A DNA stretch of 64,000 bases, taken from Deltaproteobacteria bacterium (lineage in GTDB: Bacteria; Desulfobacterota; Desulfobacteria; Desulfobacterales; G020354645). The notes beneath the pieces were generated by a model, which saw only the letters and a list, made by a program, of their open reading frames with translations, ran no database searches and had not been told where the DNA came from. This document shows positions 3,153-28,458 of the stretch, piece by piece; within the stretch, counting starts at the first letter, position 1, and every line of letters begins with the position of its first letter. The position numbers were made by a program, and so were the translations under genes. Where the stretch lies: the NCBI GenBank assembly GCA_020354645.1, contig CP070652.1:292818-356817 (forward strand), read 5' to 3'.

Positions 3153-4829
3153 TTGCTACCCATTATTCCGGAAATCAGCAAAGTTATAGGATGGTGGAAA
3201 CCGGGTGATAATTCGCCGGAGCTTGGAAATGATGCGATAAAAGCTGCAATTTCCAATGTGAGGGCATCAGTAGTTTTATTGAACATAAATGGTCAACTTG
3301 GGGTTGGCAAGGGCGGTTCACTGCATCTTGGTGATCTCGCAACCGCAGCATTCCCCCCTGAACCCGATGACTATCCGATAGTAGCTTACGCGCCGCCACT
3401 GCATCCGAATTGCCTGGGTCACTTGTATTTCAAACGTTCTCATAATTTACGCTATGCCTATGTTATCGGCGCCATGGCCAATGGAATTTCATCGGTTGAA
3501 ATGGTTGAGCAGGCCGGGCAGGCAGGAATGCTAGGTTTTTTTGGTGCTGCCGGATTGACGATACCTGAAATTGACTCGGCCATCACCCAAGTGCAACAAC
3601 GTATGTCCGCACTGCCCTATGGGTTTAATCTGATTCACAGCCCAAACGAGCCTGAATTGGAATCCGCAACGGTGGATCTTTATCTAAAACGAGGCGTCAA
3701 ACGCGTAAGTGCATCAGCTTATCTCGACCTCACACTGCCCCTGGTGTATTTCCGATCACACGGTATTAGCCGAGATCATCAGGGGCGGGTAATTTGCCCC
3801 AATCAAATCGTTGCCAAAGTTTCCAGACGAGAAGTTGCCCAAAAATTTTTTTCACCGCCGCCGGATAAGCTACTCAAACATCTTGTTACGCACGGAATGA
3901 TCACCGAACAACAAGCCATGCTTGCAAAGTCTATACCCATGGCAGACGATCTGACCGCTGAAGCCGATTCCGGGGGGCACACCGATAATCAGCCGGCCAT
4001 TTCTTTGCTGCCCACCATGCGGGCTCTGCGCGATGAATTGGCCGAGAAATTCAATTATGACCGCCCGTTGCGAGTGGGCTTGGCCGGCGGAATCGCCACT
4101 CCTGATTCGGCTGCTGCAGCCTTTGCAATGGGTGCAGATTATGTTCTGACCGGTTCTATAAATCAGGCCTGTCTGGAAGCCGGAACATCGGATAGCGTCC
4201 GCTCTATGCTGGCACAAGCCAGTCAAGCAGATGTTTCTATGGCCCCGGCCGCTGATATGTTTGAAATGGGGGTCAAGGTTCAGGTGTTGAAACGCGGAAC
4301 GATGTTTCCCTTTCGGGCAGCCAAACTCTACGACCTGTATTGCAAATATGACTCCTTAGAAGAACTTCCAGCGGAACAAAAAATAATCTTAGAACGAGAT
4401 TTTTTTCGTCGCAGTTTTGAAGAGGAATGGGAATACACCCAGGCATATTTTGACCGGAGGGATCCTACGCAAATCCAGCGGGCCGCATCAAACCCCAAGC
4501 ACAAGATGGCCCTTGTTTTTCGCTCATATCTGGGCCGTTCATCTTCCTGGGCAAATACGGGTGAGCCGTCGCGAAAAATAGATTATCAAATATGGTGCGG
4601 TCCGGCCATCGGTGCATTCAATGAGTGGGTCAAGGGGAGTTTTCTCGAAAAACCGGAAAACCGGAGAATCGTGACGGTTGCCATGAATATTTTGTACGGA
4701 GCCGCGGTGATTACACGAATCAATTGGATTCGCAGTCAATGTATACCGTTAGATTCAGCCTTCCAAAAATATATTCCGCAAAAACTCTCGAAAATAAATG
4801 AAATGTTGCGTGAAGATCTGATTGGCTAA
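3153..4829 (+). CDS. pfaD: PfaD-family trans-acting enoyl reductase of a PUFA/polyketide synthase (nitronate monooxygenase fold)
   Basis: 558 aa. YAYVIGAMANGISSVEMVEQAGQAGMLGFFGAAGL and GLAGGIATPDSAAAAFAMGADYVLTGSINQ are typical of PfaD-type FMN enoyl reductases. Lies upstream of pfaA/pfaC-like genes. Confidence 0.85.
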   Translation: MLPIIPEISKVIGWWKPGDNSPELGNDAIKAAISNVRASVVLLNINGQLGVGKGGSLHLGDLATAAFPPEPDDYPIVAYAPPLHPNCLGHLYFKRSHNLRYAYVIGAMANGISSVEMVEQAGQAGMLGFFGAAGLTIPEIDSAITQVQQRMSALPYGFNLIHSPNEPELESATVDLYLKRGVKRVSASAYLDLTLPLVYFRSHGISRDHQGRVICPNQIVAKVSRREVAQKFFSPPPDKLLKHLVTHGMITEQQAMLAKSIPMADDLTAEADSGGHTDNQPAISLLPTMRALRDELAEKFNYDRPLRVGLAGGIATPDSAAAAFAMGADYVLTGSINQACLEAGTSDSVRSMLAQASQADVSMAPAADMFEMGVKVQVLKRGTMFPFRAAKLYDLYCKYDSLEELPAEQKIILERDFFRRSFEEEWEYTQAYFDRRDPTQIQRAASNPKHKMALVFRSYLGRSSSWANTGEPSRKIDYQIWCGPAIGAFNEWVKGSFLEKPENRRIVTVAMNILYGAAVITRINWIRSQCIPLDSAFQKYIPQKLSKINEMLREDLIG

Positions 4830-4943
4830 ATTATAAATTAACATGTTTTATCAAGACCGATGGATTTTCACCGATTCTAGTGATTGTCATATTGATATAT
4901 CTTTTTAACAATATACAATCTGATATTTTCTTTATTCGTATCT

Positions 4944-5549
4944 TCATGGTTTTTGCGCCTTACCCGGTATGCGATAAAGCGTTTTTGAAATATTTAGCGC
5001 TTCGATAAATTGTTGCAGTACGGCTGTTATATTGAGTATCTTCACTTCCGCAGCTTCTGAAACCGCCCGAATATTTTTTTGTGTTGGGATCAATAACTCA
5101 ATATACCGTTGTTCTCTGACCCCCGAAGCTTCATGTTCAACAGGGATATCGGAAATTATTCCTCGAACAGCATAGAAAAAGTCAATGGTTTGACCCGAGA
5201 AAGATGGCTGCTGATAAATGAATATAACATATCGTTTGACGACAACATCCGGGATATCTTTCAATTTGGGGGCCGCGCTGGAATTCTGATAAATACCCAT
5301 TGACTTTAGCCATTGCCTCAGATCTTCTAGAATCTTCTTGGCTTCAGGAATCGTAAATTTTATGGTTGAAACGAGATGGCCACCCAGAAAAACCTTAAAC
5401 GCATCATCGATACTATACTGCCGGGCGAATCCGGATTGCATGCCGCCCAAAGGGTCCGGTGGTAAAAATTCTCTTGACCATCGCTTCCATTTGGCTAAAT
5501 TAATCCCAAGCTTTTGTGCCAATTCCCTGTTTGTATAAAATTTTATCAA
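4944..5549 (-). CDS. Hypothetical protein with possible N-terminal helix-turn-helix
   Basis: 201-aa ORF divergent from pfaA. The N-terminus YTNRELAQKLGINLAKWKRWSREF resembles a short MerR/excisionase-type HTH. No other recognisable motif. Confidence 0.45.
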   Translation of the reverse strand: MIKFYTNRELAQKLGINLAKWKRWSREFLPPDPLGGMQSGFARQYSIDDAFKVFLGGHLVSTIKFTIPEAKKILEDLRQWLKSMGIYQNSSAAPKLKDIPDVVVKRYVIFIYQQPSFSGQTIDFFYAVRGIISDIPVEHEASGVREQRYIELLIPTQKNIRAVSEAAEVKILNITAVLQQFIEALNISKTLYRIPGKAQKP

Positions 5550-5609
5550 AATACCTCCTTGCTAACTTGTTATATCGGGTTATCAATTTAAATTTCGATT
5601 GTCAATTCC

Positions 5610-5638
5610 TTGCAATTAATTTAATTTTGCTTTATATA
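5610..5638 (+). promoter_or_regulatory. Candidate sigma70-type promoter for pfaA
   Basis: TTGCAA (5610-5615), a 17-nt spacer, then TATATA (5633-5638), about 55 nt upstream of the pfaA start in an AT-rich divergent intergenic region. Confidence 0.3.
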
Positions 5639-5692: not shown

Positions 5693-8600
5693 TTGAAACC
5701 ACACATAAAAACCACCGGAAACCACCCCCCCCTCGCAATCATCGGAATGGGATGTTTTTTTCCGAAAGCAGCAGGATTAAAAGAATACTGGCGACTCATC
5801 GCTCAGGCGCAGGACGGTATCACGGAGGTACCAGAGACCCATTGGTCGGCTGATGATTATTACCATCCGGATTCAAAGACTCCCGACCATGTATATTGCA
5901 AAAGGGGAGGATTTATCTCTCCTGTCATGTTCGATCCGGCTGAATTCGGCATCCCTCCGAATACACTTGAGGCTACGGATACCTCTCAAATTCTTGGTCT
6001 GATGGCAGCCAAGTCCGCTCTAGCGGATGCCGGGTACGGTGACGGCTCTGGTCGAAGTTTTAACCGGAGTCGAACCAGCGTCATTCTCGGTGTTACCGGA
6101 ACGCAGGAACTTGTAATCCCTTTGAGTTCAAGGTTGGGTTTTCCGAAATGGCGCCGGGCGCTTGAGGCTGCGAACGTACCCGTTGAAAAAGCTGACGAAG
6201 TTGTCGAGAGGATATCGAAGTCGTACGTCCCCTGGCAGGAAAACTCCTTTCCGGGCCTTTTGGGTAATGTTGTTGCCGGGAAAATATGCAACCGCTTGGA
6301 CCTCGGTGGCACTAACTGTGTGGTTGACGCCGCCTGCGCCAGTTCCATGAGCGCCATTCATCTTGCCGTTCTTGAACTCTGCTCCGGTATCAGCGACATG
6401 GTAATTACCGGTGGTGTCGACACGCTCAACGACATTTTCATGCATATGTGTTTTTCAAAAACTCAAACCCTCTCAGCGTCCGGTGATGCTAAACCATTTT
6501 CAAAATATGCGGATGGCACTGTACTGGGCGAAGGAATCGGTATCATTGTTATCAAACGCCTTAGCGATGCGAAAAAAGATGACGACAGGATCTACGCTGT
6601 AATCAGAGCCCTGGGATCTTCCAGTGACGGGAAATCTCAAAGTATTTATGCCCCCCGAGTGGAAGGTCAGGCTAAAGCGCTGCGTGCGGCCTACGAAAAT
6701 AGCGGTATTCATACTTCAACGGTTGAACTTATTGAGGCTCACGGCACTGGTACACGCGTCGGCGATAGGGTCGAATTTAAAGCGCTGTGCCGGGTATTCG
6801 ACAGACAATCCCGCAATGGACACAAATGTGCTCTCGGCTCGGTTAAGTCCATGATCGGCCACACCAAAGCGGCGGCAGGTGCTGCCGGTCTTATTAAGAC
6901 CGCTCTTTCCCTTTACCACAAAATACTACCGCCGACGCTCAAAGTTGAAGAACCCGATTCCAAGTTGAACGTCAATGAAAGTCCTTTTTATTTGAATACG
7001 GTAACCCGACCGTGGCTCACGAAGGGTAAACATCCACGCCGTGCGGGTGTACGCGCATTTGGATTTGGTGGAAGTAACTTTCATATGGTACTTGAAGAAT
7101 ATCAGCAGGTCAAAACTGAAGTGTCCTGGGACGGTTCTGCCGAAATTGTGGCGTTGTCGGCTTCATCCGAAAAAAGCCTGGCCGATCGGCTGGCTGAGTT
7201 TATAACTCAAACCGAAAAGGGTGTGCCAAAAACCCAACTCTCCCTGCAAGCAGCGAAATCAAGGCGTTCATTTTCGTACCGAGACGCTTGTCGGCTTCTG
7301 TTTGTACTTGACCAGCAAATGATCGAATCCGGCGAATTTGTTGACCTTTTTTCTGGGGCACTGATGAACCTGCAGATGGACCACCAAAGAAACCCTTTGA
7401 ATTTAAAGCATACCTTTTACGGTGGGCCCGAAAATCCAGGAAATTTGGCTCTATTGTTCCCCGGTCAGGGCAGCCAGTATGTGGGAATGGGCCGAGACCT
7501 TGTATGCTATTTTCCGGAAGCGATGAGAGTACTTGATAATGCCAATAAAGCTTTCGGAAAAATAGGCCTGCTGAGTGAGTATATCTATCCCCCGCCCTCT
7601 CAAACAAAAGAAGAAGAAAAAAACCAGGCAGAAACACTGGCGAAAACCGAAATCGCCCAACCGGCCATTGGAAGCATAAGTTTGGCTATGCTGAAAATCC
7701 TTCAGCGATTTGGTGTTCGATCTGATGCAACCTGCGGTCACAGTTTTGGAGAATTCACGGCCCTGCATGCGGCCGGCTGGTTCGACGAAAAAACCCTTAT
7801 GCAGCTTTCAATCACGCGGGGACGCCTAATGGCCGCGGTCGTTGGAAATCATAACCAGCACAAAGGATCTATGTTAGCCGTTTTCGCCCCGCTCGATGAA
7901 ATTCAAAAAATAATTCAGGACTACAGCCTGAATGTCACTTTTGCGAATAAAAACAGCCCGTTCCAGGGAGTGGTATCCGGTCATACTGACGCCGTATCTA
8001 CCGCCGAGGAGGTTTTCAGGCAAAAAGGTTTCAACACGGTAGTGCTGCCAGTCTCCGCAGCTTTCCACAGCTCGCTGGTTAATGATGCCCGTGAACCATT
8101 GTTAGCTGCCCTAAAAAAAGTCCCATTCAAACCGTCACGGATACCGGTATATTCCAATTCAACCGGTACCCCTTACCCTTTAGCAGTGGATAAGGTCGTC
8201 GAGTTACTGGGCAACCACCTTTTACAACCGGTTGATTTCGTGAGTGACATCGAAAATCTCTACCAGTCCGGCATCCGGACATTTGTTGAGGTCGGCCCAA
8301 AATCAACCCTCACCGGGCTTGTCACCGCCATATTAGATGGCCGTCAATTTAACGCAATTTCAATGGACCAATCTACAGGAAGGCGATTCGGTCTTGTGGA
8401 CCTTGCCATGACCCTTTGCAATCTAGCCGCTCTCGGCTACGCTGTAGAACTGGATAATTGGGAAACACCGCTCGCCGATATGAAAAAACCGTTGTTGAGC
8501 ATACCGATCACAGGAACGAATTATTGGAATCCGAAAGCCGAAATCACGAGCCAAAAACTAACAAACCATAACGATCCTGAGGAAACGGGGATGGTGGGGA

Positions 8601-11600
8601 CGCCTTCCGATTTTCCTAAGCCAATGGATCTAGCGGATGATTTTGTTTCGCAGACATCATCTTACTCTGAAGAAATGAATTCCATGAAAAAATCAAAAGA
8701 GAAGCGTCAACGCCTTGAGGTTGCAGCCGCATTAAAAACGGTTCGGGAGGTCCTCAAATCCATTCAGGCTCTCCAGATAAAGACTGCTGAAACCCACCAA
8801 AAATTCCTGGAAGCCCAAATGGAGGCCAGCCGTACGCTGCAGATGATGATGCAAAGTACCCAGCGCCTGGCAGAAAAATCACCGGGTTTCTCTGTTACCG
8901 GGGACGACCTAGAAGGGGTGCAAGAAAAAATCAGAAAAATTAGCGGGGGCTTAAAAAATGCTTTCTCCGATATTAAGGACAGCCTTCCTTGCGCTGCAGT
9001 CTCACCGGAAAGTGTCATTTCGGAAGAAAGCACCGCAGATGACACTCCTATAAATTGCGAAGCACCGGAAACCGGGCCCTGTGCATATAAGGCCCCCCTA
9101 CCTATTGAAAAATCCAACTCAGACCATCAGGCATTGAAAACCCTTGTGCTTGATCTGGTGAGCGAGTTGACCGGTTATCCGATTGAAATGCTTGACCTGG
9201 ATATGGATATCGAAGCTGATTTGGGAATCGATTCCATTAAAAGAGTCGAAATTTTCTCAACTCTTGAGGAAAAGATACCCGGCCTGCCACCACTGTCACC
9301 CGATATGTTGAGTCGCTTAAAAACCCTCGGCCAGATTATCACTTATATCAGCGACGCTTCCAAAAGGAAGCAGGAAAATCAGCCAACGGCGCCATCCACT
9401 GTTGAAAGTTCTTCTTTTTCTTATGAAACCGGCCAAACCGGAGATGCAGCTATCTTACGGGAAAAGCTGTTGGATATCCTCTTGCTGACGGTCAGCCAAC
9501 TGACCGGCTATCCGATTGAAATGCTCGGTTTGGAAATGGATATCGAATCTGATTTGGGAATCGACTCCATCAAAAGGGTGGAAATTTTCTCCACCCTCGA
9601 GGAAAAAATTCCCAACCTGCCTAACATCTCACCCGATGTCTTGGTTTCATTAAAAACCCTCGGCCAGATTACCGACTATCTGATTGGCACCATCCCCAAT
9701 GGTGACTCCGCACGGAGTAACATCAAACGCTCGACTTCCAAATCGGAAAATTTCTTGAACATCGAGGACACTTTAACACAAGAATTATCTGAAACCGGTT
9801 CAGTATCCGCTCGGGTTGAAAGGTACGTCATATCCGCAACAGAGAAACCCCACCGCAAAAGATCCACAATAACAATTCCGGCCGATCGCAAGGTATTGAT
9901 TATCGATGACCAAAATGGGCTTTCAACGGCTATCGCCGATGAATTTAAGCAACGGAACATAGATTCTGTTGTAATACCCAGCGACGTATTGACCCGTAAA
10001 GAAAAACTGCCTGAGACGGGCGGCCTCATCTATATTCAAAAATCAGAATTGCTCGTCCAGCCCTCAGATTTGAAAAAGGCTTTTCTTTTAGCCCAATTCG
10101 TGGCACCGCAACTTATCGATTCCGCTGGGTGCGGAGGGGCAATCTTTGCAACCATAACCCGGCTTGATGGGGCTTTCGGCTTTAAAGGCACGGGATTTGA
10201 CAATCCGTTGCAAGGCGCGCTTGCAGGTATGGTGAAAACTGCTGCGACCGAATGGGTGGGTATAAGCTGTTGCGCCATCGATGTTGCTCCGGATTGGTCC
10301 AAAAACCGGGAAATCGCCAGGACGTTAGTTAGAGAGCTGGTGGAACCTTCGGGAGACGTTGAGATTGGAATTGATCAAAACAAACGTGTCGTGCTCGAAC
10401 TGGAGGCTGCACCCTTTGCCCAAGACCAGAAAATAAAAATTGATCTTCATCCAACGGATGTTGTTGTCGTCACCGGCGGCGCAAGGGGCATTGCAGCACA
10501 TGCTATCTGTACCCTGGCCAATCACACCAAAGCTAATTTTGTTCTCATCGGACGCTCACCACATCCAACATCGGAACCGCTTTGGCTTGAAAATTTGACA
10601 GATGAAGCGCGGATGAAAAAAGCAATCCTTGAAAATCAGTTTAAAGACAAAAAGGCTTCACCGATTCAGCCCGAAGAAGCCTATAAAAAGTACACAGCCA
10701 ATCGTGAAATCGCCGCCAATCTTAGCCGTCTGAAAGCTAGTGCTTCGAATGTATCCTATTTCTCCGCCGATGTTCGCGATCCTCAAGCGATTCGATCTGT
10801 CCTCAAAAAGGTGCAGAAAGACCACGGGCCTATTAAAGCAATCATACATGCTGCCGGTGTACTGAATGACCGGCTGATTGTGGATAAAACACCCGAACAG
10901 TTTGAAAAGGTTTTTGACACCAAAGTAAAAGGCCTCAATGCCTTGCTGGAGACGACTAAAAGAGAAAATCTAAAGTATCTCGTACTCTTCTCATCCATTA
11001 CCGCACGGATAGGCAACCCGGGCCAGGTGGATTATGCCATGGCCAACGAAGCCCTAAATAAGATTGCCCAACAAGCGTCGCAGAACCGTCCTAATTGCAA
11101 AGTAGTCTCCATTAATTGGGGGCCATGGGAAGGCGGTATGGTGACGCCCATGCTGAGGCGTGAATTTAAACGCAAGGGAATCAGGCTCATTCCTCTCGAT
11201 GAAGGTGCAAAATGTATGCTATATGAAATGTCGGCAAAGAACAACAGTCCTGCAGAAGTCGTCATCGGCAGCAGCAGAATCTCTCCGGCTAAGGCGCCAA
11301 TCAAAGAAATTCAAAATGCAGCCCTGGGGTATCATCAATCTGATGATAAAGACTTTTTAATCACTTTCAAACGAGAAATAGATGTCGATCGGTACCCTAT
11401 TCTGGATTCACACATATTGGGTGGCAAACCTGTAGTTCCTTTCGCACTGATGACGGAGTGGTTTGGCCACAGTGCGCTTCACAATAATCCGGGACTGACT
11501 CTCTGTGGCCTTGAAGATATGCGAATCTTAAACGGCATCAAAGTCGATCAGGAAGGAAGGGTCGTGCGCCTGCTGGCCGGCAAAGCCCGTAAAAGAAAAT

Positions 11601-12196: not shown

Positions 12197-12226
12197 ATTA
12201 TAGCGGACGGTACAAAAATATTACGA

Positions 12227-12997
12227 TCAAAGGTTAAACTTACGGGAAAACTCATCGATGATGATTACAAATTCCTCCGGTAGCCTTTTTCTCACATTGG
12301 CAATAATATTAGCGGAAACTTTTTTATAAAACGCTTGAGCAATTCCACCGGTAATACATCCAATGGTATCACTGTCACCGCCGAGAGAGATACCTTTTCG
12401 GATCGCATCTTCATAATCTTCCGACTCCAGAAAGGCGATAATTGCTTCTGGAACCGTGCCCTGGCAAGATATATCAAAACGGTACAACGGTCTGATATCA
12501 TCAAGTTTTCGTTTAAGATCATATTTAAACCGATCGCTAATTTCCGTCTGTATATCACGTTTGGTGTATCCGGTTCGGGCCAGATAGATCGCCAAGGCTG
12601 TAGCTTGAGCGCCTTTGATCCCTTCCGGGTGATTGTGGGTTACGGCCGCGCTTTTTTCCGCTTCAGTTAAAACCTCATCTTTAGAATCAAAGGCAAAGCC
12701 TACCGGACTAACCCTCATGGCAGCCCCATTCCCCCAGCTTTTGTAAGGTTTGCTTTGTGCCGACTGCAGCCAGTGAAAAAATGAGAGGCCGTATCCGGCA
12801 AAGGGATATTTTTGTCCGAACAATTTTAATGAAAAACCATAATCGGTGTTATTCAGAATTGAATAGGCGACAGCAACGGTTAGAACGGTGTCGTCGGTAA
12901 ATCGCGAATGGGATCTAAAAAGTGGAAAAATGGTGGTTTTGATGGGATTCTGCTCAAAAACCGAGCCAATGATATCCCCGGCAACGGCGCCAATCAT
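12227..12997 (-). CDS. ADP-ribosylglycohydrolase family protein (DraG/ARH-like)
   Basis: Motifs GAVAGDIIGS, FTDDTVLT, GNGAAMRVSP, HNHPEG and GGDSDTIGCITGG are typical of the ARH fold. The likely start is the internal ATG (MIGAVAG) at 12997 rather than 13009. Confidence 0.8.
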   Translation of the reverse strand: MIGAVAGDIIGSVFEQNPIKTTIFPLFRSHSRFTDDTVLTVAVAYSILNNTDYGFSLKLFGQKYPFAGYGLSFFHWLQSAQSKPYKSWGNGAAMRVSPVGFAFDSKDEVLTEAEKSAAVTHNHPEGIKGAQATALAIYLARTGYTKRDIQTEISDRFKYDLKRKLDDIRPLYRFDISCQGTVPEAIIAFLESEDYEDAIRKGISLGGDSDTIGCITGGIAQAFYKKVSANIIANVRKRLPEEFVIIIDEFSRKFNL

Positions 12998-13279
12998 TGT
13001 TAACTCCACTGGGTTTCGAAAACAATAGACTTAACCCGTGTAGAGTTTCAATTAAATAATCTTGATTTTTAAAAATAATAATGCTTAATAAGCAAAATTT
13101 CATCTTTTTTCTTGATCTTATTTTAGAATTTACTCTATGATAAACATAGTTGATTATGCCCCTGCAGGGAAAAGGATTGATGTCGCTTTGCAGGAAAGGT
13201 TCCTTGGCTAGGGCGTCAGTATCTATCAGTTGGGGTGATCGTGGGGTGATCGTTAACAGTTGGCGAAAGGAGTTAGGTT

Positions 13280-13480
13280 TTGGCAAATGGCACAGTAAAA
13301 TGGTTTAGCAACAAAAAGGGCTATGGTTTTATTGAGAAGGAAGAAGGCGGGGATTTATTTGTTCACTACACTGCCATTAGCATGCCGGGATATAAAACCC
13401 TCGCTCAGGGTGACCGGGTGACATTTGAAATCGAAGAGAGCGAACGAGGACCTGCTGCCAAGAACGTCGAAAAGATTTAA
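13280..13480 (+). CDS. Cold-shock protein, CspA family
   Basis: 66 aa. GTVKWFSNKKGYGFI (RNP1) and DLFVHYTAI (RNP2). AAGGAG Shine-Dalgarno 7 nt upstream of the TTG start. Long 5' leader, as is usual for csp genes. Confidence 0.9.
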   Translation: MANGTVKWFSNKKGYGFIEKEEGGDLFVHYTAISMPGYKTLAQGDRVTFEIEESERGPAAKNVEKI

Positions 13481-13500
13481 CCGTTTGCATTGCAAAGCAA

Positions 13501-13544
13501 AAGGGGCATCTCAATTTTCCAACTGAGTATGCCCCTTTTATTTT
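13501..13544. terminator. Rho-independent terminator after csp (may also serve the convergent gspC-like gene)
   Basis: AAGGGGCAT (13501-13509) pairs with ATGCCCCTT (13529-13537), followed by TTATTTT. Confidence 0.7.
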
Positions 13545-13602
13545 AAGCGTTTTAATCCATCACTTGGTTTTGAAATTTGGCCAGTAAAATTTCAATCTTA
13601 AA

Positions 13603-14454: not shown

Positions 14455-14544
14455 GGTTTCTTATTCAAAATATTTTTAGCAAATACATAGTTTTCTTGAT
14501 TTTTTTTCATTCAAACGGACTGTAGCTAAAAATTATACCGAAAA

Positions 14545-15414: not shown

Positions 15415-15545
15415 GGCTCAAAGTACCCTTCCCTTTTGAGAACTTATGTTCACTTATCTTACCATTCAGTTAAGACCAATGCAAATAAACCGAAAAACCG
15501 GTTAAAATGAATTGAAGTTTATAGTAAAATCACTGGTTGAATTTG

Positions 15546-21700: not shown

Positions 21701-22800
21701 CTGTCGGCAAACCTTCAAAAGCTTTCGGAGATCCTTATAAAGATTTTGATGAAGGACGTTTTATCGCGAGACTACCGGCCCCGCCTTTCTCCTTTATAGA
21801 CAGGATCGTTGCAGCCGAGCCCCAGGCCTGGGTCTTAAAGCCGGACGGATGGGTGGAAGCAGCCTATGATGTTTTTCCGGATGCCTGGTATTTTAGAGCC
21901 AACCGCAGCCCTTACATGCCCTACTGTGTGTTGCTGGAAATTGCCCTTCAGACGTGCGGTTGGATGGCGGCTTATGCAGGTTCGGCTCTTAAAAGCCAAA
22001 AAGCGCTTAAATTCAGAAACCTGGAAGGCAGTGCGATTTTGTACCAAGACGTTTCCGCCGATTTAAAGACCTTAAAGATCCGCAGCCGCATGACAAACGT
22101 ATCAACCCTCGAAGACATTATTATTGAGGCATTCGCGGTTAAAATTCTGCAGGCCGAAAAAATGATATTTGAAGGCCAAACATCTTTCGGCTTTTTCACA
22201 CCTGGAGCACTCGCCCAGCAAAAGGGCATCCGGGATGCCGACCAAAATAAATACCATCCCCCTGTGGAGGAGATCAGCGGCGGCAGATCATTGGTCTTTA
22301 ATGCCGAAGCTCCCATGACTCCTGATGATCCCGAAACCACAGCGAGTTCAAGCTTGGCCATGCCGGCCAAGGCGCTTCGCATGATTGACCGGATTGACAT
22401 CTACTTGCCGGATGGTGGTCCTCAGGGTCTGGGCTTTATCCGCGGAGTCAAGCAGGTTGATCCAGACGAGTGGTTTTTCAGGGCCCACTTTTTCCAGGAC
22501 CCGGTGTGTCCGGGTTCGCTGGGCATCGAATCTTTTCTGCAGCTAATAAAATTCATGGCCCTGGAGCGTTGGCCTCACCTGATAAACACTCATCGGTTTG
22601 AACACGTAACCGCTAATCCCCATAGCTGGACTTACCGGGGCCAGATTGTGCCGGAAAACAGAGAGATTGAGGTGGAAGCCTTAGTAAATTCAATTGATGT
22701 GGCGTCGCATCCGACCATCATGGCTGTTGGGTTTTTAAAAGTAGACGGACTTTGTATCTATCGAATGGATAATTTCGGATACCGCTTGGTGCCCTGCTAA
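15736..22800 (+). CDS. pfaC: PfaC-like multidomain PUFA/polyketide synthase subunit: KS-CLF-AT-DH(FabA-like)-DH(FabA-like)
   Basis: 2354 aa. KS motif LDAACASS (Cys codon 16312-16314). A second KS-like domain has no active-site Cys (VVSGEEASG, about 17803-17823), which marks a chain-length factor. AT motif GYSLGES (Ser codon 19252-19254). Two FabA-type motifs: CHFMDDMVMPGTLMYE (His codon 21274-21276) and AHFFQDPVCPGSLGIE (His codon 22486-22488). Confidence 0.92.
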   Translation: MAIKKATPIAVVGMAGLFPGATDLDVFWHNIINKVDTTRPVPKKRWIVDPDTMYQSETSPDKAVSTRACLIENFRFNPEEIAIDHDLLESLDPLYHMVLHTGRTAISNLVNRSFNKERTGVILAAIALPTDTSSALTRKIFENSFSEKLFDRSAFEAPTKNQSLASRVTSLPAALLAKGLGLGGGSYTLDAACASSLYAVKLACDELASYRTDTMLAGGVSRPDCLYTQVGFSQLRALSPTGCCAPFDESADGLVVGEGAGVVVLKRLEDALKHDDPIQGIISGSGISNDLRGNLLAPDSEGQLRAMRCAYESAGWSPLEVDLIECHGAGTPVGDNTELLSLRKLWGSSGWQPGQCAIGSVKSMIGHLLTAAGAAGMIKTLLALKYKILPPSLHFKKAPENSPLNNGPFRVQTTAEEWTKENDSEPRRAAVSAFGFGGINAHLLLEEWHPETSDFVHVAPVTKSDFSECPQLKEKIDSIETSGTDQAIVAQDPSPAAIVGMEAFFGSIRNLREFQEVILQGKSIIGKRPKYRWKGCDAYMEKSCLGMESLHGGFISELSIDISDFHIPPNEIKDILPPHLLMLKVAIQAMRDAGLALRKDRPRMGAVIGIDFDMEATNFQLRWNLPNWVQAWKKNYDFDGDHPYLNDWLESFRDSMGPPLTATRTRGALGSMVASRIARELRLGGPSFVVSGEEASGLRALEIGLRSLQQYETDAFLVGAVDLCCDLRTIITSAKIKSFSKQGIIRPFDRSADGILPGEGAAALVLKRLDQAVADGDRIYAVVKGIGNASGGGIDASTPTMNAYMAALRLSCQDANVSPTAISYCETHGSGEPLKDNIESEALLTFVNDRNESRAIGSLKPNIGHTGATAGLAELVKTAICLYQEIIPPLMNFKTPTTAVWHQQTFHIPTLPQYWLRDRKKGPRRATVAAITSDGNCASVVLEGFEDAPAEKMLEKISKERKQPLGCNPVGLFVVEGERRADLMAGLDRLHQHANKYKKKNKPVEMAARHWFQLNPQQPEKPHAVSLLAADYRQLKNWIEEAQYAIRTNTSKTMIAAGGVSYCPSAIGSVGETAFVYPGSGNHYIGMGTNIGVQWPEILREMDATTSQLKSQMRPQAYVPHRVSWEAGWEQTAYNSLISDPLNMILGPVVHGEVVTHLVMKFDIKPHAIIGYSLGESTGLFAMGAWPDRHEMLQRILGSELFTSELAGPCKAARKAWNIPPDEDFNWCVTAVNRPASVVREVIDRWPTTRLLIVNTPEECVIGGRKAELETAIKKLDCEALFLDGVVTVHCDALKPVAAAYRDLHFFPVDPPKGIRFYSCASGSSYSLTSENAAASILQQALSGFDFTTTVEQAYQDGIRVFLEMGPSASCTRMIKRILDNRPHLAISACVRGEDDYLTILKFIATLISWRLPANLGKLYGMESFAMKFPDTQENNAKSQIRIVIGGKMPSLTLPPRAKKAPPATVNSQSTIASIVTSDSTLPPQISDAMAISSASKMLDRFNKCIEITAEAHKTFLDFSNEVGQAYAKILALQNRLLENTPQTGKTNNSPADSGPLSSAPIFNRDQCLEFAKGAAANVLGPDFASVDTYKVRVRLPDEPLMLVDRILSVEGEQRSLGSGRIVTEHDVLADAWYLDGGRVPGCISIEAGQADLFLCAYLGIDLAVKGLRRYRLLDASVVFHRGLPRPGDVIRYEIEIEKFIRQGDTYLFLFSFEGFIGNSRLISMFNGCAGFFTEDEIRNSGGIIEAEEDSKLLKGKIPDDWVELVPIAVESFDDEGLDALRDGNLEKCFGELFKGVQLAESLRLPGGPMKLIDRIQIINPQAGPFGLGMIRAEADIHPDDWFLTCHFMDDMVMPGTLMYECCAHSLRVFIQRLGWITEKPGVSYEPVTGVKSVLKCRGPVTPDTKKVVYEVEIKELGYGPEPYVIADAHMYADGNYIVRFKDMSLKMSGINRRQIETFWRKKHGSQSTQKQRDKKNVVFDRDKIVEFAVGKPSKAFGDPYKDFDEGRFIARLPAPPFSFIDRIVAAEPQAWVLKPDGWVEAAYDVFPDAWYFRANRSPYMPYCVLLEIALQTCGWMAAYAGSALKSQKALKFRNLEGSAILYQDVSADLKTLKIRSRMTNVSTLEDIIIEAFAVKILQAEKMIFEGQTSFGFFTPGALAQQKGIRDADQNKYHPPVEEISGGRSLVFNAEAPMTPDDPETTASSSLAMPAKALRMIDRIDIYLPDGGPQGLGFIRGVKQVDPDEWFFRAHFFQDPVCPGSLGIESFLQLIKFMALERWPHLINTHRFEHVTANPHSWTYRGQIVPENREIEVEALVNSIDVASHPTIMAVGFLKVDGLCIYRMDNFGYRLVPC

Positions 22801-23012
22801 AGTTTGTCCCAGACACAACGGTCAAAACCGGTGCGGTTGAAAGATTTTTGCAAGCGGCACTCGAGTATATTGACAAAAAGGTAACCGAACGAACTGCATA
22901 ACTAAAACCATTAAAACAATTCAATGTTACGCCCCATGCGTTGACCAATCATAGAGATAGAAAAGAGCGCAGCGGTAAGTATAAACAATCAACAACAAAA
23001 AACCAGAACATT

Positions 23013-24053
23013 ATGCGATACTCCAGAGTTTATATTGAATCGTTTGGCTATGAACTTCCCCCAAACGTCGTGACTTCCAGTGACCTTGAGAATCAACTTG
23101 CACCACTCTATGAAACACTCCGATTTCAAAAAGGGCAACTTGAGGTATTGACCGGCATCCGTGAACGCCGGTTTTGGGATACGGGTTATAGAATGCATGA
23201 AGGCGCCATCAATGCAGGTATGAAAGCCATAAAAGCTTCCGGAATCCCCCCAGAGGCCATCGGCATGCTGATTTACGCAGGGGTCTGCAGGGATAATTTA
23301 GAACCGGCAACAGCATGCGCCGTCTCCCACGGTCTGGGACTCTGTCCCGACACCGAGATTTATGATGTCTCCAATGCTTGTCTGGGCGTTTTGAACGGAA
23401 TGGTCCAAGTGGCGAATGCAATAGAACTCGGACAAATCAGGGCCGGATTGGTTGTATCCTGTGAATCCGCCCGTCAGATAGTGGAGGTCACCATTGACAG
23501 ATTACTAAAATCCAGAGATATGGAGACTTTCAAAAAAACCGTCGCCACCCTGACCGGCGGTTCAGGAGCAGTTGGAGTTTTGCTGACCGATGGCGAGTTC
23601 ACACATCACGGTCACCGACTTTTGGGCGGTGTAGCCAGAAATGCTACCGAACACCACAGGCTGTGTTGGTGGGGACCGGATACAGGGATTCCCGCCAGCG
23701 GACCGCAGGTTATGGAAACCGATTCTGTTGGGGTTTTGCAAAACGGGGTCATTCTTGGTGTTGAAACCTTTAAAGCCTTTCGCCGAGAACTCTCTTGGCC
23801 TCATGATAAACCCGACAAGGTCATTTGTCACCAGGTTGGTGCAACCCATCAACAAAACATTCTCGAATCAATAGGGATTCCGAAAGAGAGGGATTTTACC
23901 ACTTTTAAGTACCTTGGCAATATTGGCACAGTATCTCTGCCGATCACCGTTGCAATTGGAGCTGAACGCGGCTTTCTAATGAGAAATGATCTGGTCGGAT
24001 TGCTCGGTATTGGAAGTGGATTAAACTGTTTGATGCTTGGCGTGGCGTGGTGA
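23013..24053 (+). CDS. oleA: OleA, thiolase-fold acyl-CoA:acyl-CoA head-to-head Claisen condensing enzyme
   Basis: Colinear with Xanthomonas OleA as I recall it: LEPATACAV, YDVSNACLGVLNGM (active-site Cys), TLTGGSGAVGVLL, ICHQVG, GNIGTVSLPIT, LLGIGSGLNCLMLGVAW. The start is placed at the ATG of MRYSRVY (23013), which aligns with OleA N-termini. The track ORF starts 72 nt earlier. Confidence 0.88.
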   Translation: MRYSRVYIESFGYELPPNVVTSSDLENQLAPLYETLRFQKGQLEVLTGIRERRFWDTGYRMHEGAINAGMKAIKASGIPPEAIGMLIYAGVCRDNLEPATACAVSHGLGLCPDTEIYDVSNACLGVLNGMVQVANAIELGQIRAGLVVSCESARQIVEVTIDRLLKSRDMETFKKTVATLTGGSGAVGVLLTDGEFTHHGHRLLGGVARNATEHHRLCWWGPDTGIPASGPQVMETDSVGVLQNGVILGVETFKAFRRELSWPHDKPDKVICHQVGATHQQNILESIGIPKERDFTTFKYLGNIGTVSLPITVAIGAERGFLMRNDLVGLLGIGSGLNCLMLGVAW

Positions 24054-24120
24054 TGCCGGATCTAAACATTTATAACCGCATTATAAAAGTTTTCAAAAGA
24101 ACCTCTTGATAAGGCACTTC

Positions 24121-25032
24121 ATGCTGTTTACAAAAGAAGTCAATATCGACAAATTTCGGCATCTATATCCGTTTGATTCTCATTTCATAAAAATAATGGG
24201 TCTGCGGTATCACTTCCTAAATGAAGGTGCGGGCGATCCTGTTGTAATGATTCATGGCAATCCTACCTGGTCCTTTTATTATCGTGAATTGGTCAAAGCC
24301 CTTTCACTAAATTATAAGGTCATTGTGCCGGATCACATCGGCTGCGGTCTTTCTGACAAACCCAGTGGAAAAAACTATGAGTACCGGCTAGAAAGAAGGG
24401 TCAAGGATCTGGAAGCGCTGATGGACCATTTAAACCTAAAGCGAAAATTTACTTTCGTACTCCATGACTGGGGTGGGATCATCGGCATGGTTTATGCCAT
24501 ACGGTATCCTTCACGAATCGGCCGGTTGGTCATTATGAACACCGCTGCATTCCTGCTGCCCAACGGAAAACGGCTACCCCTGAGATTATGGTTGGTTAGA
24601 AACATCAGACCCTTAGCGACATTAGCCGTTCTTGGATTTAACCTTTTTTCATATGGGGCCCTTTTCATGGCATCTCACAGAAAACTTGCAAAGGATGTTA
24701 AAACCGGTCTTACTGCCCCTTACAACAGCTGGAACAACAGGATTGCGACACTTAAGTTTGTACAAGATATCCCCCTGAATGATAAAGATCCCAGTTATGA
24801 TCTGGTCATGTATGTCGATCAAAACCTGCAGTTGTTATCGGATATACCCATGCTGATTTGCTGGGGTGAACGCGACTTCGTCTTCGATAAGGATTTTCTG
24901 GCTGAGTGGCAGCGCCGGTTCCCAAAGGCCGAAGTGCATACATTTTCAGAAGCCGGCCATTATGTGCTCGAAGACGTGCCTGATGAGATCATAAAATTGG
25001 TGGGTAAATTCCTGATGAATAATCCGTTGTGA
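24121..25032 (+). CDS. oleB: OleB, alpha/beta-hydrolase (haloalkane dehalogenase-like) beta-lactone decarboxylase
   Basis: HGNPTWSFYYR, PDHIGCGLSDKP, nucleophile motif LHDWGG, and C-terminal AGHYVLED. Positioned between oleA and oleC. An alternative TTG start lies at 24106. Confidence 0.85.
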   Translation: MLFTKEVNIDKFRHLYPFDSHFIKIMGLRYHFLNEGAGDPVVMIHGNPTWSFYYRELVKALSLNYKVIVPDHIGCGLSDKPSGKNYEYRLERRVKDLEALMDHLNLKRKFTFVLHDWGGIIGMVYAIRYPSRIGRLVIMNTAAFLLPNGKRLPLRLWLVRNIRPLATLAVLGFNLFSYGALFMASHRKLAKDVKTGLTAPYNSWNNRIATLKFVQDIPLNDKDPSYDLVMYVDQNLQLLSDIPMLICWGERDFVFDKDFLAEWQRRFPKAEVHTFSEAGHYVLEDVPDEIIKLVGKFLMNNPL

Positions 25033-25193: not shown

Positions 25194-26864
25194 ATGCACA
25201 GACCTGATCCACCCAACAATGATTTTTTTAATATCTCTTCTTACTTAAAGAGAATGGCCAATATTCTCCCCTTCAAACGGGCTGTTGTCTATCCGGCCGG
25301 TCGCGATAAGCGCGGGCGTGTAACATACGCACATCTGACCTTTGAACAGCTGGATCAAGAATCCGATTGTCTGGCGCATGGACTTGAAAAAACCGGTATT
25401 GTCCGTGGAACCCGCACCATATTAATGGTTCCGCCCGGTTTGGAATTTTTTGCATTAACTTTTGCTATTTTTAAAATCGGCGCCGTACCTGTGGTTGTTG
25501 ATCCAGGAATGGGTGTCCGGCGGATGGTCAGGTGTTTAAAAGAAAGCAGACCCGGAGCGTTTATCGGCATTCCAAAAGCGCATGTATTGCGAAAGCTATA
25601 TCCGAGGTTTTTCAATACGGTAAAGATTTGGATTACGGTGGGCCGGCGCTGGTTCTGGGGTGGCCACACACTTAAAAGTATTCGCCAGTCCCCCTGGAAA
25701 GCTTTTCCGGTAGCCAGAACAAAACGGGACGATATGGCAGCGATACTTTTCACGACCGGCAGTACCGGTCCTCCAAAAGGTGCTGTTTATACCCATGGCA
25801 ATTTTGAGGCCCAGCTGCGACACATAAAGTTACATTTCCATATAACAAGCGATGAAATTGACTTGCCCACCTTTCCCCTTTTTGCTTTGTTTGATCCGGC
25901 ACTTGGCATGACTGCCATCATACCGGATATGGATCCCACAAAACCCGCTTTGGTCAACCCCGAAAGAATCATTGAACCAATTCTAAACCACGGTGTGACC
26001 AATATGTTTGCCTCCCCCGCGCTTCTGAACCGTGTCGGCAGTCATGGCAAGCAACACGGCATAAAACTGCCCTCATTAAAACGGGTTGTTTGCGCTGGCG
26101 CACCGGTAGCACCCGTCAATATCGAGTTGTTTTCCTCAATTTTATGCGGCGGTGCGGAAATACACACGCCGTATGGTGCAACGGAAGCCGTCCCGATTGT
26201 CTCCATCTCCAGCAATGAAATTCTTTCTGAAACCAGACAACGAACAGAGCAGGGTTACGGAATGTGCGTGGGGCGTCCAATCAACGATTTAGAGGTGCGC
26301 ATTATAAAAATAAGCGACCACCCAATCAACCGATGGTCGGATGCCCTTGTTGTTCCTGTTGGTGAGGTCGGTGAAATTGTTGTCAAGGGTAATCTCGTCA
26401 CCCGCACATATTTTGAACGACCCGAGGCCGATGCACTGGCCAAAATCGCGGACGGCACCGGCTTCTGGCACAGGATGGGGGATCTGGGATGGCTGGATCA
26501 GAAGGGGAGGATTTGGTTCTGCGGCCGCAAAAATCACCGGGTAATCACAGAGCATGTCACCTTGTATACCATACCCTGCGAAGCGATCTTTAACAACCAT
26601 CCGCGGGTCTTTCGCAGCGCACTTGTAGGCGTTGGACCCAGGCCAAACCAAAAACCAGTCATATGCATAGAGTTAGAAAAATCATATAGCGGCCGAGACA
26701 AAACAAAAATTCAAAAAGAGCTGCTGGAAATCGCATCCAACCATGACTTGACAAAAAATATTAAAACCGTATTGTTTCACAAGGCTTTTCCGGTGGACAT
26801 TCGCCACAACTCCAAGATATTTCGAGAGAAACTGGCAGTGTGGGCCCAGCAGCAATTGAAATAG
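25194..26864 (+). CDS. oleC: OleC, AMP-dependent beta-lactone synthetase (ANL superfamily)
   Basis: 556 aa. AMP-binding motif FTTGSTGPPKGAVYTH, TPYGATE, HRMGDLGWLDQKGRIWFCGRK. Positioned between oleB and oleD. Confidence 0.88.
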   Translation: MHRPDPPNNDFFNISSYLKRMANILPFKRAVVYPAGRDKRGRVTYAHLTFEQLDQESDCLAHGLEKTGIVRGTRTILMVPPGLEFFALTFAIFKIGAVPVVVDPGMGVRRMVRCLKESRPGAFIGIPKAHVLRKLYPRFFNTVKIWITVGRRWFWGGHTLKSIRQSPWKAFPVARTKRDDMAAILFTTGSTGPPKGAVYTHGNFEAQLRHIKLHFHITSDEIDLPTFPLFALFDPALGMTAIIPDMDPTKPALVNPERIIEPILNHGVTNMFASPALLNRVGSHGKQHGIKLPSLKRVVCAGAPVAPVNIELFSSILCGGAEIHTPYGATEAVPIVSISSNEILSETRQRTEQGYGMCVGRPINDLEVRIIKISDHPINRWSDALVVPVGEVGEIVVKGNLVTRTYFERPEADALAKIADGTGFWHRMGDLGWLDQKGRIWFCGRKNHRVITEHVTLYTIPCEAIFNNHPRVFRSALVGVGPRPNQKPVICIELEKSYSGRDKTKIQKELLEIASNHDLTKNIKTVLFHKAFPVDIRHNSKIFREKLAVWAQQQLK

Positions 26865-26910
26865 CGGTTTTGAATTGCCACCAAAGAAGGGCTTGGAGTT
26901 CTAGCATTGA

Positions 26911-27927
26911 ATGAATAGGAGGGTGAAATTGAACGTTCTGGTTACCGGGGGTGGCGGTTTTCTCGGCAGTGCGATCGTCAAGCAACTTATTGCAAAAGGT
27001 AACAATGTCCGCAGCTTCTGCCGGAGCTACTACTCAAAACTTGAGGAATTGGGGATTGAACAGATTAAGGGTGACATCGGTGATTCGGGCGCCGTTGAAC
27101 GTGCCTGCAAAGGCATCGATCTTGTATTTCATATTGCCGCCAAGCCTCCCCCATGGGGAAATTATGCGGATTACTATCGAACGAATGTTATCGGGACCCA
27201 AAACGTCATCGATGCCTGTGTCAATCAAAACATCCCAAAACTGGTGTATACGAGCACGCCCAGTGTGGTCTTCAATGGGGCTGACATAGAAGGAGCAGAT
27301 GAATCTTTTCCCTATCCTCGTAAATATAACGCCCACTATCCAAAGACCAAGGCGCTGGCTGAACAAAAAGTTTTAAAATCCGCAAGCGGCAATCTTAGAA
27401 CAATTATATTAAGGCCCCATGAGATTTGGGGTCCGGGTGATAATCATATTGCTCCCCGACTTATTGCAAGAGCCAAGCGGCTGAAAAGAATCGGCAACGG
27501 CAAAAATCTGATCGATACGACCTATATCGACAATGCAGCTAATGCACACCTTCTGGCCGCCGAAAAATTGGATGAAAATGAGGCGCTTTCAGGTAAAATT
27601 TATTTCATCAGCCAGGGGGAACCTATGTTGGCATGGGACATGATCAACGCCATTTTAACGATGGCCGGTTTTGGACCAGTAAAAGGATCTGTACCCTACA
27701 GAATTGCATGGGTGACTGGAGCTTTACTTGAATTTGTGTATAAGATATTTCACCTGTCCGGTGAACCCTATATTACCCGCTTTATGGCTTATGCAGTTGC
27801 CAAAAGCCACTGGTTTGATATCGGTGCGGCCAAGAGAGACTTGGGTTATATCCCCCGCGTTTCCAACGAAGAGGGCCTGCGCAGACTTGAAGAATGGTTC
27901 CGCAAAGACTATCACGCAAGAGGATAA
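26911..27927 (+). CDS. oleD: OleD, NAD(P)H-dependent 2-alkyl-3-ketoalkanoate reductase (3-beta-HSD/SDR family)
   Basis: VLVTGGGGFLGSAIV Rossmann motif and the YxxxK motif in YPKTKALAEQ. 338 aa, and the last gene of the canonical oleABCD order. Confidence 0.85.
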   Translation: MNRRVKLNVLVTGGGGFLGSAIVKQLIAKGNNVRSFCRSYYSKLEELGIEQIKGDIGDSGAVERACKGIDLVFHIAAKPPPWGNYADYYRTNVIGTQNVIDACVNQNIPKLVYTSTPSVVFNGADIEGADESFPYPRKYNAHYPKTKALAEQKVLKSASGNLRTIILRPHEIWGPGDNHIAPRLIARAKRLKRIGNGKNLIDTTYIDNAANAHLLAAEKLDENEALSGKIYFISQGEPMLAWDMINAILTMAGFGPVKGSVPYRIAWVTGALLEFVYKIFHLSGEPYITRFMAYAVAKSHWFDIGAAKRDLGYIPRVSNEEGLRRLEEWFRKDYHARG

Positions 27928-27930
27928 ACA

Positions 27931-28458
27931 ATGAAGTTGACAGAGCTTTTACCGCTTGAAAAATGGGTGGAACTTGAAGAGGAGATTAGCGATAAATTTG
28001 GTATCGCGGCCAATGTATTTGACGTAAACGGCATCAGAATAACAAATTATAAAAACTGGGTTAATCGACTATGTCCTGTCATCAAAGCCAATGAAAAAGG
28101 ACAAAGCTTTATCTGTGCCGTTGCGCATATGAATATCGCCATGCAGGCGATGCAAAATAAAAAACCTGTGATTGAAGAATGCGATGCCGGGCTGGCCAAA
28201 CCGGTCGTTCCCATTTTTGCCGGTAACGAATTTTTAGGTGCAATTTGCGGTTGCGGCTTATTACTTGAAGACGGTGAAGTCGACGCATTTTTGGTTCATA
28301 AGATTACCGGTATCCCTGAAGGAGAAATAGAAAGCTTGTCGAATGATATAGAAACTATTGCTGCAAGACATGTGGAAGCCTTAATTAATTTCATGGAAAA
28401 AAGAATCAATCAAATCGTCACAGATTTTGAAAATCAGACTTCCGATAAAGCCTTGTAA
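27931..28458 (+). CDS. Stand-alone PocR sensory-domain protein (PAS-like fold)
   Basis: 175 aa. The layout LQ..F....G.A..V.D..G...T......RLC..I......G...C and the EC.AGL....PI...GE.LGAI.GCG segment match the PocR ligand-binding domain. The ATG is 3 nt after the oleD stop, with an AGAGGA Shine-Dalgarno inside the oleD 3' end. Confidence 0.65.
   Translation: MKLTELLPLEKWVELEEEISDKFGIAANVFDVNGIRITNYKNWVNRLCPVIKANEKGQSFICAVAHMNIAMQAMQNKKPVIEECDAGLAKPVVPIFAGNEFLGAICGCGLLLEDGEVDAFLVHKITGIPEGEIESLSNDIETIAARHVEALINFMEKRINQIVTDFENQTSDKAL

Follow-up and report, generated by a model that had tools for sequence, protein, structure and literature searches.

Clusters in which the genes of a polyunsaturated fatty acid (PUFA) synthase, the pfa genes, neighbour the olefin biosynthesis genes oleABCD have been described from several bacterial groups, and the locus treated here is a further case. 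It lies in a stretch of 64,000 nucleotides, called the window throughout, of an uncultured bacterium of sulfate-reducer type from the Desulfobacterales (assembly GCA_020354645.1, contig CP070652.1, positions 292,818 to 356,817 of the forward strand), in which pfaD, pfaA and a pfaC-like gene are followed by oleA, oleB, oleC and oleD. We propose, with a probability of roughly 0.7, that the locus encodes an iterative PUFA-type synthase together with a complete OleABCD set, and that the Pfa chain would be passed to OleA to yield a very long polyunsaturated hydrocarbon. Genes, motifs and conserved adjacency are observations of the present analysis, while the chemistry is carried over from the systems of Shewanella and Xanthomonas and from the product of Geobacter bemidjiensis.

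According to Shulse & Allen (2011), linkage of ole genes to pfa-like clusters is frequent, and the 'Type I' cluster, which carries a pfaBC fusion and occurs in Geobacter, Desulfuromonas, Pelobacter and Gemmata, was proposed there as a supplier of precursors for olefin biosynthesis (PMC3098273). In the strict anaerobe G. bemidjiensis, now Citrifermentans bemidjiense and a member of the same family as Geomonas, the genes pfaD-A-B-C-oleABCD-pfaE stand in tandem (Yoshida et al. 2016, PMC4882568), and both PMC3098273 and PMC4882568 state, by citation of Sukovich et al. (2010), that it makes hentriacontanonaene (C31:9). Adjacent pfa and ole operons were also described in Photobacterium profundum SS9 (Allemann et al. 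2019, PMC6463001). The initial annotation of the window had implied that a fused locus of this kind in an anaerobe is new, a claim that these reports of 2011, 2016 and 2019 do not allow. The pfa-ole arrangement is real, but it is known from Geobacter and common among related anaerobes, and the locus opens no new class of chemistry or mechanism. To our knowledge, enzymatic reconstitution has so far not been achieved for any linked pfa-ole locus of an anaerobe.

The cluster of G. bemidjiensis resembles the one in the window in coming from a strict anaerobe of the same phylum, in the order of pfaD, pfaA, a PfaBC-type gene and oleABCD, and in having pfaC immediately upstream of oleA in the same direction. 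Exactly the G. bemidjiensis layout is found in the Geomonas loci L061-L074, and the Geomonas orthologues of OleB, OleC and OleD show the same NCBIfam score profile as the proteins of the window. Identity to the Geomonas proteins is 52-59% for the Ole proteins and about 43% for PfaA and PfaC. The window departs from this type in several respects: its genes are neither all contiguous nor all co-directional, a MerR-like gene stands between pfaD and pfaA, and pfaA and pfaC lie 3.5 kb apart, with genes for an ADP-ribosylglycohydrolase (ARH), a cold-shock protein (CSD), GspC and GspN in between, as compared with about 40 bp in Geomonas. In addition, pfaE was not found, and the slot after oleD that it holds in Geomonas is taken by a gene for a PocR domain.

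Shewanella oneidensis MR-1 and S. pealeana are the strains that supplied the evidence, both genetic and heterologous, for condensation of a Pfa-derived 16:4 chain by OleA: Shewanella pfa mutants lose C31:9, pfaA-E together with oleA yield a 31:8 ketone in Escherichia coli, and OleA probably draws the acyl chains directly from Pfa's acyl carrier protein (ACP) domains, as those authors inferred (PMC6463001). These strains, which carry pfaABCDE and oleABCD, share with the window the two enzyme systems and an OleA with its catalytic Cys at position 123 (C123A mutant, PMC6463001). They differ from it in that the pfa and ole loci are unlinked, PfaB and PfaC are separate proteins, and the hosts are facultative anaerobes which may also make eicosapentaenoic acid. 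P. profundum SS9 is like the window in its adjacent PUFA synthase and ole operons, but it is a gammaproteobacterium with pfaT between the operons and makes no detectable hydrocarbon (PMC6463001).

The biochemical and structural reference for OleABCD is provided by Xanthomonas campestris, X. oryzae and Stenotrophomonas maltophilia, which share the gene order oleABCD. OleA of the window shares 38% identity with its X. oryzae counterpart and keeps all four catalytic residues; unlike the window, these organisms have no linked Pfa synthase and use acyl-CoA substrates from type II fatty acid synthesis (FAS II). Finally, three clusters of Shulse & Allen come from the same order as the host of the window and can be likened to it by description, namely type C of Desulfatibacillum alkenivorans AK-01, type K of Desulfococcus oleovorans Hxd3 and type S of Desulfobacterium autotrophicum. 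Type C has a PfaBC fusion with the domains KS-CLF-AT-DH2 (ketosynthase, chain length factor, acyltransferase and dehydratases), and type K resembles type I (PMC3098273).

The Pfa and Ole proteins

Open reading frames (ORFs) of positions 1-36000 were scanned against Pfam and NCBIfam. All seven genes named in the initial annotation, for PfaD, PfaA, PfaC and OleA to OleD, were recovered where it had placed them and in the families it had given, with E-values of 1e-120 to 0, far past chance, and both its stop of pfaC at 22800 and its start of oleA at 23013 are correct. The range of 3153-28458 that it had assigned to the pfa and ole genes does contain these seven, but six further genes that it had left unmentioned lie inside as well, and the last gene of the range (27931-28458) encodes a PocR-domain protein and no Ole enzyme.

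PfaD scored 643 bits on TIGR02814 (pfaD_fam, cutoff 449) and matched the Pfam families NMO and FabD_helical_ins; orthologues of 548-557 amino acids (aa) hold the same position in the related loci L082, L083, L085 and L086. PfaA scored 1477 bits on TIGR02813 (cutoff 1010) and carries the Pfam domains ketoacyl-synt, Acyl_transf_1, two PP-binding, KR and PS-DH. Its active sites are recognizable in the KS (Cys215 in DAACASS, HGTGT at 350), in the AT (GHSFG at 682) and in the two ACPs (S1181 and S1292). In the PfaC-like protein, Pfam found ketoacyl-synt and Ketoacyl-synt_C twice each and FabA in four stretches. The first KS has its catalytic Cys at position 193, whereas the second KS-like domain is regarded as a CLF because Glu stands where the catalytic Cys would be. 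A PfaB-family match at residues 1068-1416, with GYSLG at 1171, marks an AT that is fused inside PfaC, as is typical for the PfaBC type, and two FabA-type His motifs follow at 1847 and 2251. The set comprises synthase subunits of the PUFA type, namely KS, AT, tandem ACPs, KR (ketoreductase) and DH' in PfaA, KS-CLF with two FabA-type DH and a PfaB-type AT in PfaC, and PfaD.

The PfaC architecture differs among linked clusters. Beside oleA in 11 related loci (L032, L033, L038-L041, L048, L053, L067, L073 and L075) stands a PfaC homologue which is about 1.5-3 kb shorter and has no match to the AT region.

Although the oleA ORF reaches back to a TTG at 22941, all relatives show homology only from the ATG at 23013 on. 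Against the Protein Data Bank (PDB) the protein matched the Xanthomonas OleA entries 3fk5, 3row and 4kti with 191-200 bits, as compared with 30-56 bits for FabH structures. On the model NF006720 it reached 481 bits (cutoff 285), close to the 471 of the solved X. oryzae OleA and the 502 of Geomonas OleA, while its score on the fabH model TIGR00747 was 67 bits (cutoff 292). In addition, its residues E97, C123, H273 and N303 align with E117, C143, H285 and N315 of the X. campestris enzyme. OleA was thus placed with the OleA proteins and not with FabH/KAS III, as had been expected, and the catalytic motifs attributed to all four Ole proteins were found.

The nearest models and structures of OleB are haloalkane dehalogenases, which is a known trait of OleB proteins, and the libraries searched held no OleB-specific model that matched it. 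Its motifs are HDWGG with Asp121 and GHY with His285. The start codon is uncertain, with relatives aligning from residue 2-20, and the Geomonas orthologue shows the same score profile. OleC scored 766 bits on NF006754 (cutoff 478) and has the P-loop TTGSTGPPK at 187. OleD matched 3Beta_HSD with 197 bits and has the short-chain dehydrogenase/reductase (SDR) motifs GGGGFLG and Y143-x3-K. PDB searches with OleB, OleC and OleD brought up no Ole structures, just haloalkane dehalogenases, acyl-CoA ligases and SDRs of a generic kind. The three genes follow oleA on the plus strand, and the same order is found in almost all related loci.

Conservation of the pfaC-oleA unit

To survey relatives, genomes were scanned with the OleA protein, taking one genome per species, and the proteins of the window were mapped by tblastn onto the 80 loci obtained. 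These searches also bore out that the host is a Desulfobacterales member of the anaerobe type. Linkage was counted over the 76 loci in which the sequence upstream of oleA reached 1 kb or more. In 61 of them oleA is directly preceded by the C-terminus of a pfaC homologue, with a gap of -6 to 611 bp (median 60) and hence an overlap in some; the adjacency seen in the window is shared by most of these loci. The linked set includes many Desulfobacterales metagenome-assembled genomes (MAGs), the cultured Desulfatitalea alkaliphila, ten Geomonas/Geobacter genomes and a Sumerlaeota MAG. In the remaining 15 loci oleA is not preceded by pfaC. A neighbour-joining tree of OleA places them in nested sub-clades (e.g. 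a Candidatus Desulfaltia group) or in the Pirellulales outgroup, and from this position linkage seems to be the ancestral state of this OleA clade and to have been lost secondarily in some members. We read the adjacency of pfaC and oleA as a reflection of function and not as a chance neighbourhood.

Within the 212-bp spacer between pfaC and oleA (22801-23012) no terminator-like site and no Rfam family was found, and its predicted RNA fold shows no structure beyond that of shuffled controls (z = 0.20). The pocR gene begins 3 nt after the oleD stop, as read directly from the junction sequence. The genes pfaC-oleA-oleB-oleC-oleD-pocR probably form one transcription unit, and the divergent intergenic region upstream of pfaC (15415-15735), which holds no more than weak promoter-like matches, is presumed to be its promoter region.

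The situation is different for pfaD and pfaA. The initial annotation had described the whole as one colinear locus, a description that does not hold, since pfaD, pfaA and pfaC are three separate units with five other genes in between, of which four lie on the minus strand. A conserved MerR-like gene on that strand separates pfaD from pfaA, and the genes for ARH, CSD and the type II secretion proteins GspC and GspN separate pfaA from pfaC; this second block (12227-15414) is probably unrelated to lipid synthesis. We take pfaD and pfaA to be separate transcription units near the pfaC-oleABCD-pocR unit.

The neighbourhood of pfaA was surveyed by anchoring on PfaA homologues. The nearest public relative found, locus L082 (GCA_975970985.1), shows full synteny, with an OleA that is 85% and a PfaA that is 67% identical to the proteins of the window. 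L082 and the metagenome contig L086 share the order M24 peptidase, Xer, pfaD, MerR-like gene (-), pfaA, ARH (-), CSD and GspC (-), and for the small genes at the cold-shock position of both the Pfam family CSD is on record. GspN (-) and pfaC come after GspC in L082, and the contig of L086 ends inside GspC. GspC and GspN stand upstream of pfaC also in L047, L049, L050 and L059. By contrast, no pfaC lies within 10 kb downstream of pfaA in three cases, L083 (a complete chromosome from the Desulfobacterales), L084 (Desulfonema limicola) and L085, and among the loci anchored on OleA, pfaA abuts pfaC (gap of about 40 bp) only in ten Geobacteraceae loci and not in 37 others. Given this unlinked or non-abutting position of pfaA in the relatives, the conserved unit in Desulfobacterales is pfaC-oleABCD, and the window is a loosely linked variant in which pfaD and pfaA happen to lie 3.5 kb upstream.

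Proposed pathway and its alternatives

The roles of OleA to OleD are established by the biochemistry of the Xanthomonas and Stenotrophomonas enzymes. In the pathway that we propose, the ACPs of PfaA would first be phosphopantetheinylated by a phosphopantetheinyl transferase (PPTase) encoded outside the 64-kb window. PfaA, PfaC and PfaD would then build a polyunsaturated medium-chain acyl group iteratively from malonyl units on the two PfaA ACPs, with KS, AT, two ACPs, KR and DH' supplied by PfaA, KS, CLF, AT and two FabA-type DH by PfaC, and the enoyl reductase (ER) by PfaD. OleA, with Cys123 forming the acyl-enzyme and Glu97 as base, would join two of these chains in a Claisen condensation of the non-decarboxylative type to a 2-alkyl-3-oxo acid, which OleD would reduce to the 3-hydroxy acid. 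OleC would close the latter with ATP to a beta-lactone, and its decarboxylation by OleB would give a cis-alkene, a long polyene such as C31:9. The divergent MerR-like gene would regulate pfaA. The transfer of the Pfa product to OleA, already suggested in the initial annotation, fits the adjacency in 61 of 76 loci and the published genetics (PMC6463001), from which we infer it.

Several points weigh against this pathway or against C31:9 as its product. Sequence does not predict how long the chain is or how many double bonds it holds, so that the product, proposed here from the genes, may not be C31:9. PfaA has only two ACP domains, and PfaA and PfaC share no more than about 43% identity with the Geomonas proteins. 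In most Desulfobacterales relatives pfaD and pfaA do not adjoin pfaC-oleABCD, and in the window itself they are not co-oriented neighbours of pfaC. Partner enzymes were looked for as well: among the scanned ORFs of the window (long, non-nested, roughly at least 120 aa, over the 64 kb) there was no match to the PPTase family ACPS of Pfam, to which PfaE belongs, and none to the 4HBT/hotdog family of PfaT-type thioesterases. A tblastn search with PfaE of Geomonas, where a pfaE gene matching ACPS lies directly after oleD, was negative for the window and for every Desulfobacterales locus. The PPTase for this synthase may be encoded elsewhere in the genome. Finally, the best specific matches of OleC, to the olefin beta-lactone synthetase models NF045785 and NF045786, reached 643 and 633 bits, under their cutoffs of 850 and 900, and the best matches of OleD, 403 bits on NF042422 (oxyalk_red_OleD) and 382 bits on NF042423, lie under the cutoff of 580. 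These cutoffs appear narrow, and not to be evidence against membership, because the Geomonas orthologues show the same sub-cutoff pattern, with 695 and 694 bits for OleC and 470 and 433 bits for OleD.

The coupling of Pfa and Ole might be real and its product nevertheless differ from C31:9 in chain length or unsaturation, which we consider possible but doubtful. With two ACPs, a PfaBC fusion and the stated distance to the Geobacteraceae enzymes, a different intermediate may be released, and the PfaC architecture itself varies, 11 loci being without the AT region. C31:9 reportedly also occurs in a planctomycete and a verrucomicrobium, a finding ascribed to Sukovich (2010). The products of the Desulfobacterales clusters of types C, K and S are uncharacterised (PMC3098273); on the other hand, C31:9 is reported from lineages as distant as Shewanella and G. 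bemidjiensis (PMC3098273), suggesting that the 16:4 precursor is conserved in Pfa-Ole coupling.

It is improbable, in our estimation, that the two systems are merely independent neighbours, the Pfa synthase making a membrane or other lipid and OleABCD condensing FAS-II acyl-CoAs to mono-unsaturated or branched C27-C31 olefins. Such an arrangement would agree with the OleA enzymes of Xanthomonas and Stenotrophomonas, which take FAS-II products (PMC6463001), with the unlinked pfaD and pfaA of several relatives and with the 15 of 76 loci in which oleA has no pfaC upstream; moreover, Shulse & Allen left a stand-alone product of pfa homologues possible (PMC3098273). However, pfaC alone makes no product, yet it is tied to oleA in the 61 linked loci, often with gaps of 0-40 bp, which is hard to explain without a shared function. 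In addition, G. bemidjiensis makes Pfa-derived C31:9 with the same gene order (PMC4882568), and OleA of Shewanella exclusively uses the Pfa-derived chain despite the presence of FAS II (PMC6463001). Passage of the Pfa chain to OleA is thus the reading that we retain.

An alkene is the expected end product, since none of OleB, OleC and OleD is missing and each carries its motifs. OleC-type beta-lactone synthetases also occur in lactone natural-product clusters without OleB. That the pathway halts at an intermediate, either a long-chain ketone arising when the OleA product decarboxylates spontaneously or a natural product of the beta-lactone kind, was raised in the initial annotation and would be in line with the ketones made when OleA is expressed without OleBCD (PMC6463001), but it is very unlikely here, as oleB, oleC and oleD are intact, in canonical order and conserved together with oleA across relatives, and the Asp/His pair of OleB implies decarboxylation of the lactone to the alkene.

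Putative regulatory genes and surroundings of the cluster

The product of the gene at 4944-5549 has 1618 homologues, nearly all of which are annotated as 'hypothetical'. The gene adjoins pfaA divergently in all seven complete contexts examined (L082, L083, L085, L086 and L088-L090), and in L087 a cut gene stands in this position beside pfaA. Of 38 family members, 26 match MerR_1 weakly at residues 5-76 (best E-value 1.4e-5). The AF2 model of the protein has a pLDDT of 78, and its best fold match in the PDB is the MerR-type regulator CvkR (7xn2, E-value 5.6e-4), followed by BmrR, suggesting that the gene probably encodes a dedicated MerR-type regulator of pfaA. The only matches of the family profile among the PDB sequences, weak ones to designed proteins derived from KDPG aldolase (E-value about 0.005), were rejected as spurious, the fold search having given MerR-type regulators.

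In 25 related Desulfobacterales loci the gene after oleD encodes a homologue of the PocR-domain protein with 165-178 aa, and in 10 of these the two genes overlap by 4 bp; where relatives are without one, mostly minus-to-oleD genes come next, that is, genes of the other orientation. The protein had no solved relative in the PDB, and a literature search for a link between PocR and olefins yielded nothing relevant. We speculate that in the Desulfobacterales lineage the ole operon may include pocR as its fifth gene, with a ligand-binding or sensing role. With a rather low probability, the conserved functional module of the Desulfobacterales could comprise the six genes pfaC-oleA-oleB-oleC-oleD-pocR rather than the classical pair of pfaABCDE and oleABCD, with PocR binding or sensing the hydrocarbon or an intermediate and pfaA standing separately under a MerR-type regulator of an undescribed family. 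Very little is known about the regulation of the pathway (PMC3098273), and neither the PocR gene nor the MerR-like family is described as a Pfa/Ole component in the literature searched.

Table 1. Genes and intergenic regions at the pfa and ole genes of the window, with the basis of each assignment.
Feature	Position	Strand	Basis
O-methyltransferase	125-778	+	ORF list, Pfam/NCBIfam
M24 peptidase	856-1974	+	ORF list, Pfam/NCBIfam
Xer-type tyrosine recombinase	2083-2979	+	ORF list, Pfam/NCBIfam
pfaD, enoyl reductase subunit of PUFA-type synthase	3153-4829	+	TIGR02814, Pfam
MerR-like gene, 201 aa	4944-5549	-	No Pfam/NCBIfam family at default thresholds
pfaA, KS-AT-ACP-ACP-KR-DH' subunit	5693-12196	+	TIGR02813, Pfam
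ADP-ribosylglycohydrolase	12227-13009	-	PF03747, 123 bits
Cold-shock protein, 66 aa	13280-13480	+	Identity read from product sequence
GspC	13603-14454	-	GspC_delta NF041515, 180 bits (cutoff 150)
GspN	14545-15414	-	TIGR04411, 91 bits (cutoff 50)
gspN/pfaC divergent intergenic region, 321 bp	15415-15735		Read directly from sequence
pfaC-like, PfaBC fusion type, KS-CLF-AT-DH-DH	15736-22800	+	Pfam, NCBIfam, motifs
pfaC-oleA spacer, 212 bp	22801-23012		Intergenic
oleA, thiolase-fold head-to-head Claisen condensing enzyme	23013-24053	+	NF006720, PDB, residues
oleB, alpha/beta-hydrolase, presumed beta-lactone decarboxylase	24106-25032	+	Abhydrolase_1, 112 bits
oleC, AMP-dependent olefin beta-lactone synthetase	25194-26864	+	NF006754
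oleD, NAD(P)H-dependent 2-alkyl-3-oxoalkanoate reductase	26911-27927	+	NF042422, 3Beta_HSD
Standalone PocR sensory domain	27931-28458	+	PF10114 PocR, 72.9 bits (cutoff 23.9)
Rrf2 regulator	28798-29202	+	ORF list, Pfam/NCBIfam

The Xer-type recombinase upstream of pfaD was considered as the mark of a genomic island carrying the cluster, and this was rejected, as the synteny of M24 peptidase, Xer and pfaD is kept in L082 and L086. An Rfam scan of the whole window returned just two tRNAs, tRNA-Cys and tRNA-Gly at 62344-62501 (-), and the cluster is without a riboswitch or leader.

Downstream of the cluster, the stretch 28798-36638 (+) encodes, after the Rrf2 regulator, a Pyr_redox_2 protein, a DUF1641 protein, a second Pyr_redox_2/Fer4 protein, a protein combining Fer4 with an FlpD/MvhD-like part, and Fer4 and CCG-domain proteins; this flavin and iron-sulfur oxidoreductase set resembles a module of the heterodisulfide reductase type (Hdr/Flx-like). 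A run of signalling and motility type at 43610-53210 (-) includes an ATPase of the type II secretion system (T2SS) or type IV pilus (T4P) type with an MshEN domain, a response regulator with DUF4388, a PAS protein, a zinc-ribbon/HAMP protein, several ORFs without family and a small Ras-like GTPase beside a Roadblock/LC7 protein, an MglA/MglB-like pair. At 57691-62291 (+) an ABC ATPase, a MacB/FtsX-type permease and a CrtC-like protein (carotenoid hydratase N-terminal lipocalin) are encoded in a row, and the two tRNAs come after the CrtC-like gene.

The locus adds an uncultured Desulfobacterales genome to the large set of anaerobes with the genetic potential for polyunsaturated long-chain hydrocarbons. 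The linkage of pfaC and oleA across the surveyed loci bears on the source of polyene hydrocarbons in anoxic sediments and also on the role of such lipids in strict anaerobes, for which protection from oxidative stress has been proposed (PMC4882568). The PocR and MerR-like genes are two small new leads and possible handles on the regulation of the pathway.

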